Under the pieces are notes generated by a model that saw nothing but the letters and a program-made list of their open reading frames with translations, did not search any database and was not told the origin of the DNA. A DNA stretch of 64,000 bases. It comes from a virus. The stretch's first letter is position 1, and each line of letters begins with the position of its first letter. Below, in pieces: positions 3,994-50,537 of this stretch. A program made the translations under genes and the position numbers. Location of the stretch: the IMG/VR virus record IMGVR_UViG_3300030339_000006. One strand, given 5' to 3'.

Positions 3994-4350
3994 ATGCTAC
4001 TGATCCTGCTGCTCATCAAACACTTTCTTTTAGATTTCCCTTTCCAAACCCCTTACATGCTCCGTAAGTCACAGCCGACTGGATGGTTCTTCCCGCTCTT
4101 CCTCCATGCTGCCGCTCACGGTGCCGCCACCTTTATACTCCTGCTGTTCTTCGCACCGACCCTGGCCATTCCTCTGGCTCTGGCGGAAGGCGTCGTACAC
4201 TTCGGGATCGACTACTGGAAAGCCCAGAAAGCGAAGGCCGAGTTTGCCTCTGCGAAGTTCTGGACGTACCTGGGTCTGGACCAATTGTTCCACAATCTGA
4301 CCTACGTCGCGATTATTTTCATCGTTTCCCTTTACATGACGGGACTTTAA
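3994..4350 (+). CDS. DUF3307-like membrane protein
   Basis: KHFLLDFPFQT, HAAAHG, HFGIDYWK, GLDQLFH. Confidence 0.85.
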   Translation: MLLILLLIKHFLLDFPFQTPYMLRKSQPTGWFFPLFLHAAAHGAATFILLLFFAPTLAIPLALAEGVVHFGIDYWKAQKAKAEFASAKFWTYLGLDQLFHNLTYVAIIFIVSLYMTGL

Positions 4351-4384
4351 GCATATGCTACTCCTAACTAAACAGGAGAAGTCT

Positions 4385-10451: not shown

Positions 10452-10524
10452 AAGACAAGTAGCTCAACTGGTTAGAGCATAATCATACCCGATTAGTGTT
10501 GGGGGTTCGAGTCCCCCCTGTCTT
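10452..10524 (+). ncRNA. tRNA-like RNA / pseudo-tRNA with 6-nt anticodon loop, no CCA
   Basis: Canonical D arm and T arm; TAATC-ATACCC-GATTA. Confidence 0.65.
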
Positions 10525-10555
10525 AGCTTTAAAATCTCCCTATTAGGAGAACTTC

Positions 10556-11332: not shown

Positions 11333-11384
11333 CAGGCATCGGGATTATCGCAGTAGCCATCATCATCGTCTGGTGGTGGAATCG

Positions 11385-11531
11385 ATGAGCTACGAACATA
11401 AACGTGGTGACATCAAGGAGAGCGCCGTAAAGGCGCTACTCTTCGACCCTCTTTTTAGACAGCGAATTGTGGTGGCTAAGAAGGGGAAGGGGTCCTATCG
11501 CCGTGTCAAAGCGGCAAAGGCTTACCCATAA
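11385..11531 (+). CDS. arfA: alternative ribosome rescue factor A (48 aa)
   Basis: Hand-translated [40 protein letters not shown] matches ArfA signature DPLFRQR...KKGKGSY.R. Confidence 0.9.
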
Positions 11532-18519: not shown

Positions 18520-18858
18520 ATGTTATAGACCAAACACTGGACCTACACGTTCGTTCGTACTGATCTGCCGCTCGAGCAGATTCTCGTTCAATCCAACCAC
18601 GCTTCCCACGAAGCCGCCCTGAAGTACCCCTACACCTCTGCTGAACCTAACTCGCTGATCGTCATTGGCGTGAAGAACCGTGCTGCCCTCGAAAAGGCCA
18701 TGGCCCGCTTCGCTGCGTTCGACCCAACCCCTTTCTACGAGCCCGACTGGGAGTACGGCCTGACCGCCTTCACCACCCGTCCAGTGACCGAAGAAGAGCG
18801 TGCTGAATTCCGTAAGTATCAACTCTTCCGGAGGTCACATGTACGCAACCAATTTTGA
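18520..18858 (+). CDS. Pth2-like peptidyl-tRNA hydrolase with in-frame UAG at codon 3
   Basis: GAGG RBS, ATG-TTA-TAG then open frame YTFVRTDL...VQSNHA...LIVIGV...FYEPD...LTA. Confidence 0.75.
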
Positions 18859-19372
18859 TGACCTTCAGACCCGGATGGCCGCCACTGAGCAGACCGCCGG
18901 CGTCTCCGTTCTGGAACACGGCCACAGCGTCCACCAGCGGTACCAGGAGCTCCTTCGGGAGCTCAACCAAGGCAAGGGCAACCCGACACTCCAGAAGGTC
19001 TGGGAGAGCGTTAGAGAGCGTCTGATGGACCCCGATCTGATCTGGCGGTATCAGGTGTATCACGACTGTGGCAAACCGGCCTGTGCCCAGGACGGACACT
19101 TCCCAGATCACGCAGAGCACTCAGCGAATCAGTGGGCCCTACTCTTCCCGGAAGACCCGGTCGTCGCTGACTTGATGCGGATGGACATGCAGTTCCACTT
19201 GACGAACGCCGAGGACGCCCGGTCCTTCTGGGCACACCCGCTGGCCCCGACCCTCTACGTCACAGCCTGGGCGGAGATTCTGTCAAATGCCAGCATGTTC
19301 GGCGGAGAAGACTCCACGTCCTTCAAGATTAAGCGTAAGAAGTTAGAGCGTGCCGGGCGGGCGCTGTGGTAA
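18839..19372 (+). CDS. HD-domain phosphohydrolase
   Basis: EHG..V, YHDCGKP, HAEHSA; GGAGG RBS. Confidence 0.75.
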   Translation: MYATNFDDLQTRMAATEQTAGVSVLEHGHSVHQRYQELLRELNQGKGNPTLQKVWESVRERLMDPDLIWRYQVYHDCGKPACAQDGHFPDHAEHSANQWALLFPEDPVVADLMRMDMQFHLTNAEDARSFWAHPLAPTLYVTAWAEILSNASMFGGEDSTSFKIKRKKLERAGRALW

Positions 19373-20080: not shown

Positions 20081-20109
20081 TTGACAGGTCAAGGACGACC
20101 TGATATCTT
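20081..20109 (+). promoter_or_regulatory. sigma70-like promoter driving suppressor tRNA
   Basis: TTGACA-17-TATCTT. Confidence 0.7.
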
Positions 20110-20117
20110 ACAGACAT

Positions 20118-20193
20118 GCCTGAGTAGCTGAGCGGTTGTAGCGGGAGCCTCTAAAACTCTGATACGTCGGTTCGAATCCGACCTCGGGCACCA
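20118..20193 (+). tRNA. amber suppressor tRNA (anticodon CUA)
   Basis: GCCTGAG/CTCGGGC acceptor, GGAGC-CT-CTA-AA-ACTCT, GTCGG-TTCGAAT-CCGAC, ACCA. Confidence 0.85.
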
Positions 20194-20290: not shown

Positions 20291-20366
20291 GGGTGCATAG
20301 CTCAGTTGGCAGAGCGGCGGACTCTTAATCCGTAGGTCGTAGGTTCGAACCCTACTGCACCCACCA
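20291..20366 (+). tRNA. tRNA-Lys(CUU)
   Basis: CT-CTT-AA loop, ACCA. Confidence 0.92.
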
Positions 20367-20426
20367 CTTCCCCTTTTGCGAATTCCTTGGTATAATAGAC
20401 ATACCGTCCATACCAGGAGTTTTTCC

Positions 20427-20621
20427 ATGAAAGATATTATCGGTAATACCCTCGAAATCGGCGACCGCGTCGTGACCACTGTCAGTGGCTACGAAGAATT
20501 ACAGGTCCGCTACGTTCACAGCTTCACCCCTAAGAAAGTCCGTCTGTCCGCCCACCCGAACCTTGAGTTCACTTCCGATCTTAAATCCCCTCGTCAACTC
20601 GTGAAGGTGCCGCATGTTTGA
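20427..20621 (+). CDS. small SH3/KOW-like protein (D..G..L.VGD.V family)
   Basis: MKDIIGNTLEIGDRVV. Confidence 0.7.
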   Translation: MKDIIGNTLEIGDRVVTTVSGYEELQVRYVHSFTPKKVRLSAHPNLEFTSDLKSPRQLVKVPHV

Positions 20622-20808
20622 TTTCCGTAAGCAGGAACTGGCGGTTGGGGACACGGTAGCCCTTTTTTGGTGCGACGGCCAGTTGGCCGAAGGGGTCATC
20701 GTGCAGATTCGGGGCAACTGGGCCAAACTCGACGTTACTTATCACGGCTCGGTCTCTCGCAGTAAGTGGAAGGCCGGCTACACCATGGTTAAACTGGAGG
20801 CAAAATGA
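20614..20808 (+). CDS. small SH3/KOW-like protein
   Basis: MFDFRKQELAVGDTV. Confidence 0.7.
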   Translation: MFDFRKQELAVGDTVALFWCDGQLAEGVIVQIRGNWAKLDVTYHGSVSRSKWKAGYTMVKLEAK

Positions 20809-21002
20809 AAGATCAATTCGGTCGTGAGCTCAAACTCGGCGACATGGTCGTCTTCTGCGGGATTCGTCACCGCTCGGCGTACCTCTACCGCGGCATCATT
20901 GAGAAAGTCGAAGGCAAGTCCCTGACGATCTTCTGTGGTGACCGCGAGTCTTCCCGTAAACGCTTCAACCGCCACTGTGAGGACGTTTCCCTTGATCGAT
21001 AG
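20805..21002 (+). CDS. small SH3/KOW-like protein
   Basis: MKDQFGRELKLGDMV. Confidence 0.7.
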   Translation: MKDQFGRELKLGDMVVFCGIRHRSAYLYRGIIEKVEGKSLTIFCGDRESSRKRFNRHCEDVSLDR

Positions 21003-21192
21003 ATTCGGCAATACTCTGTCCGTCGGTGACACGGTGGTTTACTTCTCAACGGGCTATGCCCCGACTGCCCGCGTTGGCATGATCATCGAGTTCGCGAGAG
21101 GGTCAGTGAAGATCAAGACCACTTCTCATCGTGAAGTCCTTCGGTCGGCAGGCTCGCTCATCCACTACACAGGAATCGCTAATGGTCTTTAA
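20992..21192 (+). CDS. small SH3/KOW-like protein
   Basis: TTG start; IDRFGNTLSVGDTV. Confidence 0.65.
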   Translation: MIDRFGNTLSVGDTVVYFSTGYAPTARVGMIIEFARGSVKIKTTSHREVLRSAGSLIHYTGIANGL

Positions 21193-21397
21193 CGGCGTCG
21201 ACATCCTCGATAAATCCGAGTTGGTCAAAGGCCGGTCCTACAAGGGCGACTGCCGGAACGCCAGTGAGGCCGTCTGGAACGGGCGTCTGTTTGTTTACAA
21301 GCGGACCAAGTTCGGTGACACCTACGATGAAACCATCGAACACCCGGAAGATGACTGCGGGTATGATCTCTTCCTCCCCCGGAGGGATTTGAATTGA
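21182..21397 (+). CDS. hypothetical protein
   Basis: Y.G.CRNA..A.WNG..F.Y.RTKFG conserved-looking phage motif. Confidence 0.6.
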   Translation: MVFNGVDILDKSELVKGRSYKGDCRNASEAVWNGRLFVYKRTKFGDTYDETIEHPEDDCGYDLFLPRRDLN

Positions 21398-21591
21398 AAG
21401 ACTTAACCGGAATGGAGATTCACGTCGGTGATACCGTGGTGGCCAGCCTAGATGGCACCGACTCCCGGATTCGCCTTTGCACCGTCATCGGCTTCACCGC
21501 CCAGAAAGTTAGAGTTCAATCCCGTTGGAGGGGCAATGAGCGTGGCGAGCTGAAAGACCCTGGTAACCTCATTATCATGAGGGCAATGTGA
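21394..21591 (+). CDS. small SH3/KOW-like protein
   Basis: KDLTGMEIHVGDTV. Confidence 0.65.
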   Translation: MKDLTGMEIHVGDTVVASLDGTDSRIRLCTVIGFTAQKVRVQSRWRGNERGELKDPGNLIIMRAM

Positions 21592-21655
21592 GTACATTCT
21601 TGCTGTGGCTTAGCCTGCAGAAACACCCTAAACCTTTACTCAATAAGGAAACACC

Positions 21656-21841
21656 ATGTTTGATGCTCGAGGAAATCCCCTGTCGTTGGCCGACTCTGTC
21701 GTCTTCGCGAAAAATGACGGGGAGTTAGGCTTCGGCCACATTACCGGTTTTGACGAGTATGGTCACTACGCCTTTATCCACACGGAGAAAGACCGCAAGA
21801 CCAAAAAGAATAACCGTGAGCTACTGAAGGTGCCGAAATGA
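21656..21841 (+). CDS. small SH3/KOW-like protein
   Basis: MFDARGNPLSLADSV. Confidence 0.65.
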   Translation: MFDARGNPLSLADSVVFAKNDGELGFGHITGFDEYGHYAFIHTEKDRKTKKNNRELLKVPK

Positions 21842-22047
21842 AGGACATTAATGGCAATGAAGTCCACGTCGGTTCCGTTGTCGTGACCGGCAGATCGGGA
21901 GGGTCCATCAGCCTGGGTTTCGGTATCGTGACGTCCATCGGTAAAAAGATGGTCACGTTAGACCGACTACCCCCAACAGACTCCCGTTACCGCCACTGCG
22001 TTTACCCCGGATCTCGCCGTTACGGAGATGATGTAGTCGTTCTATAA
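21838..22047 (+). CDS. small SH3/KOW-like protein
   Basis: MKDINGNEVHVGSVV. Confidence 0.65.
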   Translation: MKDINGNEVHVGSVVVTGRSGGSISLGFGIVTSIGKKMVTLDRLPPTDSRYRHCVYPGSRRYGDDVVVL

Positions 22048-48980: not shown

Positions 48981-49339
48981 TGACAACAAAAGTGGTTCTG
49001 GAATTGACGGTCAAGGAGACGTCAGTTCGTATCCGAGGATATGGGGAAGAGGCGATCATGGAGCACTCTCTGACTCACCCGCTGATGCAAGGCTCGCTGA
49101 AGTTTCAGTGTAAGCGAAAAGATCTGGCCGACGTACTGAAAGAATTTGCGGAGGGTTTGGACTCTCGCAAGAAAGATTTCGAAGGGGATGTTTCGTTGGT
49201 AGATGTGGGAAATGAGCTGGCCCGTAGCTCAACCGGCATCCCTTTGAGTGAAAAAGAGCAGAATGAACTGAAGACGTTACTCGACGGTAAATCCGCTGTA
49301 GAACAACGAGATGGTGCATTCCGAATAAAAATCAGTTAG
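48977..49339 (+). CDS. hypothetical protein
   Basis: GGAG RBS, coupled. Confidence 0.55.
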   Translation: MMTTKVVLELTVKETSVRIRGYGEEAIMEHSLTHPLMQGSLKFQCKRKDLADVLKEFAEGLDSRKKDFEGDVSLVDVGNELARSSTGIPLSEKEQNELKTLLDGKSAVEQRDGAFRIKIS

Positions 49340-50062: not shown

Positions 50063-50537
50063 TCTACAATCCAAGAGCCCCCTGTCGGGGGTTCATCTCT
50101 TCAATAGTAAAACATATCCCGAGGACGTGGGAGTATACTGGCGAGGCCAAGAGCCTATCGCCTTTGAGATCGATTACTCCGACGAACCTGAAGCTTTCCC
50201 CAATCTCCTCGACCACGTGTACAACTCCTACGAACTCCTTGAATGCCATCGCATCGGCGAGATCCTGATCAGTAAAATCCAGTGCGGCAAGACCTTCTAC
50301 GCAATCTGCGATGGTGACACCCTTGTTTTTAGCCACAAAAAGCCCGTGTTTGAAGACCAACGAGTGGACCGTCCATCGAATTTGGTGGTGGCAGTGCATG
50401 AGACGTTGATCGCCCAGGCGCTATTGGCCGTGAGTTTCTCTCCGGTAGATCTGGCTTGGTTGACTGGGGAAAATACAATAGGGTTGTACGAGGAAAGAAT
50501 CTGGGAGTATGCCCGTAAGCATCTCCCAGTCCATTAA
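50055..50537 (+). CDS. hypothetical protein
   Basis: Last + strand ORF before strand switch. Confidence 0.55.
   Translation: MLNLQSKSPLSGVHLFNSKTYPEDVGVYWRGQEPIAFEIDYSDEPEAFPNLLDHVYNSYELLECHRIGEILISKIQCGKTFYAICDGDTLVFSHKKPVFEDQRVDRPSNLVVAVHETLIAQALLAVSFSPVDLAWLTGENTIGLYEERIWEYARKHLPVH

Follow-up and report, generated by a model that had tools for sequence, protein, structure and literature searches.

Phages that use genetic code 15, such as the crAss-like and Lak phages, read TAG as glutamine; in these phages a phage-encoded tRNA(CUA) makes genes with in-frame TAG codons translatable, and it has been proposed that the stop codon serves as a regulatory lock (PMC7886860, PMC6784885). Jumbo phages that retain the standard code also encode suppressor tRNAs, in the company of large tRNA arrays; examples are XacN1 (PMC5852040), GAP32, where the gene is labeled "Sup-tRNA," and ME3, where it is labeled "anticodon CTA." The suppressor tRNAs of standard-code phages have repeatedly been reported without a purpose, and the authors of the XacN1 study, who sought C-terminal read-through only, found no target for the CUA suppressor (PMC5852040).

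We have analyzed a 64,000-nucleotide stretch of viral DNA (IMG/VR record IMGVR_UViG_3300030339_000006), referred to here as the window, that carries a tRNA(CUA) of the same family as these jumbo-phage tRNAs. Both this tRNA and an early in-frame TAG in a gene for a Pth2-like (peptidyl-tRNA-hydrolase-like) protein are conserved, and the two occur together in related and in distant phages. We propose, with a probability of roughly 0.7, that the tRNA decodes the UAG at codon 3 of this gene and so gates synthesis of the full-length enzyme. Such a gate would resemble the lock postulated for the code-15 phages; unlike those phages, the window phage uses the standard code, TAG terminates 6 to 12% of its genes, and a single gene bears an in-frame TAG, which falls within the first three to five codons.

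The tRNA(CUA) gene and the genetic code of the phage

No close DNA match to the window was found in the phage collection searched. Judging from its sequence, the source phage is a large relative of Salmonella phage Arash (OQ632216; 180,819 bp): the 1,192-aa wall hydrolase of the window is 67% identical to its Arash counterpart, and the gene order of the two is collinear. The clade considered here further comprises the IMG/VR genomes G001 to G004, of which G001, G002, and G003 are rated 100% complete.

About 89% of the window is coding under translation table 11. TAG terminates 14 of the 108 window open reading frames (ORFs) of at least 50 aa obtained by a greedy call and 11 of the 90 that reach at least 75 aa; at the latter threshold, the proportion of TAG-ended ORFs is 12% in the window, 9% in Arash, 6% in G001, and 11% in G003. 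The reading frames of structural, replication, and lysis genes are uninterrupted by TAG. A code-15 phage would be expected to have many genes with in-frame TAG, a poor coding density under table 11, and TAG only rarely as a terminator. This reading was rejected, given the dense table-11 coding, the single in-frame TAG conserved in four genomes, and the 6 to 12% of ORFs that end in TAG; the phage is thus, by these measures, a user of the standard code. The first-pass annotation had argued against wholesale recoding on the strength of a list of TAG-terminated genes (6689, 9079, 21002, 27854, 38850, 41773, and 49339), and it was right on both counts, the listed positions being real ORF ends. The ordinary TAG stops of the clade are followed by A in only 11 of 63 cases. 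In the ORFs of the window, Arash, G001, and G003, there was no enrichment of nearby back-up stops after TAG, and the median distance from the TAG of a TAG-ended gene to the next in-frame stop is 12 to 26 codons. Since TAG ends 6 to 12% of the phage genes and back-up stops are not enriched, a strong suppressor should carry some cost. The window also contains a 52-aa ORF (11373-11531, plus strand) for ArfA, an alternative ribosome-rescue factor (PF03889; 67.5 bits against a cutoff of 25.5), whose presence, as context, would suit a phage equipped to deal with stalled translation by itself.

The features at the tRNA locus are as follows (window coordinates).

20081-20109, plus strand: sigma-70-like promoter sequence TTGACA-17-TATCTT, with TG before the -10 hexamer; identified by a consensus scan (10/12) and by conservation.
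20118-20193, plus strand: tRNA with anticodon CUA, a predicted amber suppressor of the elongator type; identified by ARAGORN, Rfam, and direct reading.
20291-20366, plus strand: tRNA-Lys(CUU); identified by ARAGORN and Rfam.

ARAGORN reported a 76-nt tRNA with anticodon CTA at 20118-20193 on the plus strand, one of 24 tRNA genes in the window, and the match to the Rfam tRNA model (RF00005) scored 55.3 bits against a gathering score of 29. The acceptor stem (GCCTGAG/CTCGGGC) has 7 bp, including U4-G69; the anticodon stem (GGAGC/ACTCT) places C31 opposite A39; the D loop contains GG; the variable loop has 5 nt; the T arm (GTCGG-TTCGAAT-CCGAC) is canonical; and the gene ends with A73 and an encoded CCA. 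Its 7-nt anticodon loop, CTCTAAA, corresponds to C32-U33-C34-U35-A36-A37-A38 and has the sequence properties of an amber suppressor, namely, CUA in a 7-nt loop, U33, and a purine at position 37. The complete cloverleaf that had been described from the sequence, with loop CU-CUA-AA, the C31-A39 mismatch, and A73-CCA, was therefore confirmed by ARAGORN, Rfam, and direct reading. A 2026 paper ties shortened anticodon stems to stop codon read-through, via the 27-43 pair and not the 31-39 pair.

Two other identities for this tRNA were rejected. The label "Pyl" is merely the name that ARAGORN gives to anticodon CUA; tRNA-Pyl is recognized by a short D loop without GG, a 3-nt variable loop, a 6-bp anticodon stem, and accompanying pylS and pylBCD genes, whereas the window tRNA has GG in the D loop, a 5-nt variable loop, and a canonical T loop and does not have the compact Pyl shape. 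Neither pylS nor pylBCD was found among the 252 annotated coding sequences of Arash. An initiator tRNA would not be expected to pair G1 with C72; there is no C1-A72, and the stem GGAGC/ACTCT is without three consecutive G-C pairs. Both the initiator-tRNA reading and a frameshift reading of the TAG were rejected from sequence. A blastn search of E. coli genomes yielded no similar tRNA, and there was no close paralogue among the other 23 tRNAs of the phage, the best likeness being confined to the D arm, to tRNA-Ser and tRNA-Tyr. In E. coli, tRNAs with a CUA anticodon default to glutamine or lysine. Because of this background and because the window tRNA has A73, U35, and a short variable arm, our guess is that it would insert one of these two residues.

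The Arash orthologue (L001:6109-6183) also has anticodon CTA. In the Arash GenBank record this tRNA (49173-49247) is labeled tRNA-Phe, an annotation error, and the true tRNA-Phe(GAA) is present elsewhere in the genome; the Arash paper does not mention a suppressor tRNA. Between the window and Arash genes, one T-stem pair is exchanged in a compensatory manner (C-G/G-C), and U4 faces G69 in the former and A69 in the latter; in the G003 gene, the T stem contains a T-T mismatch, and position 73 is G rather than A. Loss of CUA from relatives had been named beforehand as an argument against suppression; the anticodon is retained in Arash, in G001 to G004, and in every row of an alignment of 24 tRNA(CUA) genes from different phages, in which compensatory changes occur at 19 of the 20 predicted pairs. 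The 17-nt anticodon arm, mismatch included, recurs exactly in 32 IMG/VR contigs, with 27 of the matches lying inside tRNA(CUA) genes with similar bodies. Furthermore, C31-A39 is found with two other stem sequences, and because it recurs with three different stems in all, the mismatch looks selected. These comparisons indicate that the tRNA is real and under structural selection. In the phage database, the sequences closest to it are Sup-CTA tRNAs, and these come from the very jumbo phages in which the Pth2-like gene is found.

The sequence TTGACA (20081)-17 nt-TATCTT (20109) was the top site of the consensus scan in the region, with 10 of 12 matches, and ends 8 nt 5' of the tRNA. The entire 29-mer is identical in the window, Arash, and G001, and in Arash about 78 extra nt separate it from the tRNA. 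The tRNA would thus have its own predicted promoter, as the first-pass annotation had proposed. An inverted repeat, CAGGTC-N6-GACCTG (20087-20104, plus strand), fills the promoter spacer and is conserved with the promoter-like site; it may serve as an operator or mark where an upstream transcript ends. The tRNA-Lys(CUU) gene begins 97 nt 3' of tRNA(CUA), and the two possibly share one transcription unit; at the tRNA-Lys position, Arash has tRNA-Lys(UUU) and tRNA-Arg. In G002, an extra 79-nt tRNA-like gene lies between tRNA-Lys and tRNA-Glu (L029:5566-5644, minus strand), with a TTA (ochre) anticodon according to ARAGORN and an irregular anticodon arm. Some eight small tandem genes (60 to 90 aa) follow tRNA-Lys in the window (20429-22047, plus strand), several of which share the N-terminal pattern x-G-x-x-L-x-x-G-D-x-V-V and resemble a paralogous array; Arash has nine small tandem genes (gp73c to gp81c) at the same position. 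Ahead of the array, and kept in Arash, is a strong extended -10 promoter, TGGTATAAT (about 20385-20397). Elsewhere in the window, a tRNA-like gene (10452-10525, plus strand; 38 bits with the Rfam tRNA model) has an anticodon loop that ARAGORN could not read ("???," 2-base anticodon). It has counterparts at L003:9003-9076 (minus strand) in Arash, where it is annotated as tRNA-Asn, and at L027:11704-11780 (minus strand).

The Pth2-like gene and the search for other TAG targets

The candidate target lies 1.6 kb upstream of tRNA(CUA).

18520-18858, plus strand: predicted Pth2-fold (peptidyl-tRNA-hydrolase-like) gene; SD sequence GAGGA, then ATG-TTA-TAG and 109 sense codons.
18526-18528, plus strand: in-frame TAG at codon 3, followed by A, present in 6/6 clade genomes; the proposed decoding site of tRNA(CUA).
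18839-19372, plus strand: predicted HD-fold phosphohydrolase gene (phrog_14850; Atlas model).

The real start of the Pth2-like gene is the ATG at 18520 behind GAGGA, as opposed to the internal GTG given in the ORF list. In all six clade genomes (window, Arash, and G001 to G004), the gene opens with ATG, a leucine codon (CTG or TTA), and TAG, followed by AAC or ACC; codon 2 varies synonymously, and the upstream sequence has diverged. The next canonical start in this frame lies 47 codons downstream of the TAG, and a product begun there would therefore be without the first strand and the conserved Q-x-x-H-A helix. Among the clade genomes, dN/dS for the ORF is 0.04 to 0.14, with dS of up to about 1.4 and synonymous sites near saturation; therefore, the frame after the TAG encodes a protein under purifying selection and is not a pseudogene. 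In Arash, only the last 50 codons are annotated, as gp84c (50233-50385; "peptidyl-tRNA hydrolase"), while the frame runs for 110 codons from ATG-CTG-TAG. The first-pass annotation had suggested targeted suppression and had offered the upstream Pth gene as an example; the retention of TAG at codon 3 in all six clade genomes and in distant phages with tRNA(CUA) bears this out.

The Pth2-like protein had no Pfam match at an E value of 0.01 or less, PTH2 (PF01981) included, and for a profile of 17 homologues the best PDB match was a solved peptidyl-tRNA hydrolase, 24bt_A, at a weak E value of 0.068. A single-sequence AlphaFold2 model was poor (pLDDT, 51), and an alignment-based model (pLDDT, 85.8) was used instead. 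Because the top 13 PDB neighbors of this model in Foldseek are all Pth2 or Bit1 proteins (TM score, 0.62 to 0.67; probability, 1.00), the predicted fold is that of Pth2. The Q-x-x-H-A and E-P-D...G-L-T motifs are conserved among the homologues, and the Gly-Lys loop of the aligned solved Pth2 is missing. Since PF01981 is unmatched and this loop is absent, hydrolase activity is uncertain.

The HD-fold gene shares 20 nt with the 3' end of the Pth2-like gene, an arrangement through which translation of the former is probably coupled to that of the latter. The HD-fold product has no Pfam match. As leads only, the Atlas model is similar in structure to HD domains from CCA-adding enzymes (TM score, 0.72 to 0.76), and the translation contains H-G-H and Y-H-D motifs. 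The HD gene adjoins the Pth2-like gene in nine other loci, and the two are fused in XacN1 ORF364. Taken at face value, the predicted folds suggest that both proteins act on tRNA 3' ends.

To look for other targets, the window, Arash, G001, and G003 were compared in six frames with TAG translated as X. A first scan was swamped by off-frame and antisense conservation, so only the best-scoring frame at each place was kept. With this filter, the Pth2-like gene was the only one with a TAG conserved in the true reading frame across the four genomes, the remaining cases being ordinary stops, upstream overlaps, or antisense frames; a genome scan of this kind had been put forward in the first-pass annotation, and its outcome is consistent with targeted suppression. 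A scan of the window for an SD sequence, a start codon, one to eight codons, TAG, and a long ORF likewise left only the Pth2-like gene in a plausible coding frame. Among the TAG-ending genes of the window, Arash, and G003, there was no conserved C-terminal read-through extension at the protein level, and the suggestion that the suppressor is used to make C-terminal extensions accordingly found no gene to support it.

Several individual candidates were considered in this search. Arash gp251c/gp250c and a frame upstream of the capsid gene were rejected as read-through fusions, since the in-frame arrangement is absent from G001. The pair gp165c/gp164c is a possible fusion: in Arash as well as in G001, the HSP crosses the TAG, although a separate start for gp164c lies three codons past it. 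A conserved TAG in the Arash DNA polymerase was rejected because it lies inside a group I intron (RF00028; 58.9 bits). This intron (L003:38256-38527, minus strand; about 88256-88527 in the record) splits a family A DNA polymerase within a conserved motif, and in GenBank the exons are listed as "DNA polymerase nu" and "DNA polymerase theta," with the intron ORF between them.

Pairing of the early TAG with tRNA(CUA) in other phages

Distant Pth2-like homologues are 33 to 57% identical to the window protein. In inspectable sequence, 12 of the 13 additional lineages examined combined an early TAG followed by A with a tRNA(CUA), the cultured phages GAP32, ME3, RsoM2USA, and XacN1 among them, and in most of the distant lineages the tRNA lies within 0.1 to 3 kb of the gene. 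The starts of individual genes, with the position of the tRNA relative to them, are given below.

L061 (258-kb contig): ATG ACA TAG ATC; no tRNA(CUA) seen in the 20 kb inspected.
L064 (IMG/VR G024): ATG GCG TAG ATT; two different tRNA(CUA) genes downstream.
L065: ATG TTG TAG ATT; tRNA(CUA) about 90 nt upstream.
L066: ATG TTA TAG ATT; tRNA(CUA) 1.6 kb upstream.
L067: ATG AAA TAG ATT; nothing but a tRNA-like sequence (loop CCCUAAG), not called as a tRNA, immediately upstream.
GAP32: ATG GCA CAA TAG AAT; annotated Sup-tRNA 2.8 kb downstream.
ME3: ATG ACT TAG ATT; tRNA(CUA) 0.45 kb upstream.
RsoM2USA: ATG TTG TAG ATT; tRNA(CUA) 13 kb away.
XacN1, HD-Pth2 fusion ORF364: SD-ATG-AAG-TAG-ACC, 5' of the annotated start; suppressor tRNAs in the terminal repeats.

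All of the early stops inspected in Pth2-like genes are TAG followed by A, and never TAA or TGA. The RsoM2USA tRNA was found with the Rfam model and ARAGORN, having been missed by a pattern search. In XacN1 (AP018399; L069:2440-2470), SD-ATG-AAG-TAG-ACC lies five codons 5' of the annotated ATG of ORF364, and this early TAG is a candidate target of the XacN1 suppressor tRNAs. On the minus strand of L064 (about 2351-2400), the HD gene, too, has an early in-frame TAG (M-N-E-A-TAG).

An exhaustive profile search returned 2,225 representative Pth2-like homologues, and of the best 150 of these, about a quarter are N-terminally truncated calls. Four truncated representatives (L102 to L105) were picked arbitrarily, without randomization; in each of them, TAG occupies codon 3 or 5 and is followed by ATT, and a tRNA(CUA) lies within 0.6 kb. 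In L105, a GC-rich phage contig, a tRNA with an 8-nt anticodon loop, CCUUAAAA, lies beside tRNA(CUA) (4298-4381, plus strand); ARAGORN reads its anticodon as the four bases UUAA. The pairing is not universal. Full-length homologues without the stop exist, one of which starts M-L-Q-N where the clade has M-L-TAG-N, and in G010 the Pth2-like gene has no TAG, yet a tRNA(CUA) lies 27 nt downstream. Moreover, no Pth2-like gene was detectable in several near-complete genomes that carry the same tRNA(CUA) family, in which the tRNA must therefore serve other uses. A full-text literature search found no description of an amber-gated Pth2 gene; the module of an amber tRNA and a TAG-bearing Pth2-like gene is widespread and apparently undescribed.

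Interpretation of the pair and comparison with known systems

We postulate that in the absence of tRNA(CUA), ribosomes that initiate at the SD-ATG would make fMet-Leu only and then stop, and that with charged tRNA(CUA), read-through would yield the full 112-codon Pth2-like enzyme and, by translational coupling, probably also the overlapping HD-fold phosphohydrolase. In E. coli, a following A favors amber suppression, and termination proceeds slowly when the peptide is very short. The codon 3 TAG-A fits a gate because of these context effects and because a stop at this position would give no truncated protein beyond a dipeptide, while any inserted residue would be tolerated in the N-terminal tail. 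The most likely purpose, and the weakest step in the argument, would be to tie the dose or timing of enzymes acting on tRNA ends to the amount of active suppressor tRNA. Several observations count against the gate: the annotated XacN1 ATG, five codons after the TAG, could bypass it; G010 has an uninterrupted gene beside its tRNA(CUA); and no tRNA(CUA) was called in the 20 kb inspected of L061 or in L067. A more elaborate version, which we regard as speculative and rather unlikely, is a closed translational homeostat or counter-defense sensor, in which the Pth2-like and HD enzymes would act on the 3' end of the very tRNA that controls them or on the dipeptidyl-tRNA stalled at codon 3. The reporter tRNA and the stop codon would together form the sensor through which the phage detects and corrects the state of tRNA 3' ends, for example, in response to host toxins that acetylate, pyrophosphorylate, or extend tRNA ends.

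It is also possible, if again unlikely, that general read-through is the main job of the tRNA, which would extend UAG-ending proteins of the phage or host or would disturb the host, with the TAG of the Pth2-like gene acting as a sensor for clean-up enzymes. This explanation overlaps with the gate; what separates the two is the function regarded as primary. An active tRNA would inevitably give read-through products, given that TAG ends 6 to 12% of the phage genes; ArfA fits a phage that expects stalled ribosomes, and some genomes carry the tRNA family without the Pth2-like gene. Nevertheless, the comparison of the window, Arash, and G003 gave no conserved extension, in-frame stops at a median of 12 to 26 codons would let few ribosomes reach mRNA ends, and the tight linkage of tRNA and gene across many lineages points to a specific pair. 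We consider it improbable that the TAG operates independently of the tRNA, in which case SD-ATG-NNN-TAG would be a two-codon minigene or upstream ORF, as in lambda bar, followed by reinitiation, and tRNA(CUA) would be incidental. The SD sequence, ATG, one sense codon, and stop do have the form of a minigene, and in most AT-rich lineages the TAG is directly followed by ATT or ATC, which are weak start codons; the window clade, however, has ACC or AAC there and no start for 47 codons, the stop in the inspected lineages is invariably TAG, and tRNA(CUA) accompanies it wherever a lineage offers enough sequence.

The tRNA itself might not decode at all, being a relic, a decoy for host anticodon nucleases, or a molecule with some other nontranslational role. 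The C31-A39 mismatch, which weakens the anticodon stem, and the T-T mismatch and G73 of the G003 tRNA could be taken in this sense, but the intact cloverleaf, compensatory changes, invariant CTA, and encoded CCA, the recurrence of C31-A39 in three stem contexts, and the covarying presence of the tRNA and the TAG-bearing gene make such a role very improbable. Least probable of all is partial recoding after the manner of the code-15 phages, with TAG read as an amino acid in one class of genes, for instance, the late genes. A tRNA(CUA) of their own is the hallmark of recoded phages, and the identical 17-nt anticodon arm also occurs in tRNA(CUA) genes of contigs of the 300-kb class that may be recoded; against this stand the 89% table-11 coding, the absence of TAG from structural, replication, and lysis genes, the lack of any conserved in-frame TAG beyond the Pth2-like gene in the four-genome comparison, and a frequency of TAG as terminator that is host-like.

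For suppressor tRNAs that have lacked a purpose, the conserved N-terminal UAG provides a concrete and testable substrate, and the gate could be tested directly in the cultured phage Arash, whose host is a standard laboratory strain of Salmonella. The Pth2-like gene is systematically truncated or missed by gene callers. An amber gate of this kind would be a natural counterpart of the amber-gated expression switches of synthetic biology, and should the two enzymes prove to mend or remove damaged tRNA ends, the module would also matter to the conflict of phages with host defenses that target tRNA.

The proposed gate is reminiscent of several known systems. As in prfB, which encodes RF2, an early in-frame stop lies in a gene for a translation factor whose synthesis hinges on how the stop is handled; in prfB, a +1 frameshift occurs at UGA and is sensed by the gene's own product, whereas in the Pth2-like gene the frame would be kept, a dedicated tRNA would act in trans, and feedback is conjectural. 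In pyrrolysine decoding, likewise, a dedicated tRNA(CUA) reads UAG in a few genes, the methyltransferases, while UAG continues to serve as a stop; unlike tRNA-Pyl, the window tRNA combines a D loop of canonical form with a variable loop of 5 nt and the T loop TTCGAAT, and the Arash annotation contains no pyl genes. The lambda bar minigenes share the SD sequence and the two-codon ORF, and such ORFs yield dipeptidyl-tRNA for recycling by Pth; in the window phage, a Pth-like gene continues directly and in frame from the two-codon ORF, and a matching suppressor tRNA is present. Finally, in contrast to the C-terminal read-through sought in the XacN1 report (PMC5852040), the apparent target in the window clade is the N-terminal TAG of the Pth2-like gene.
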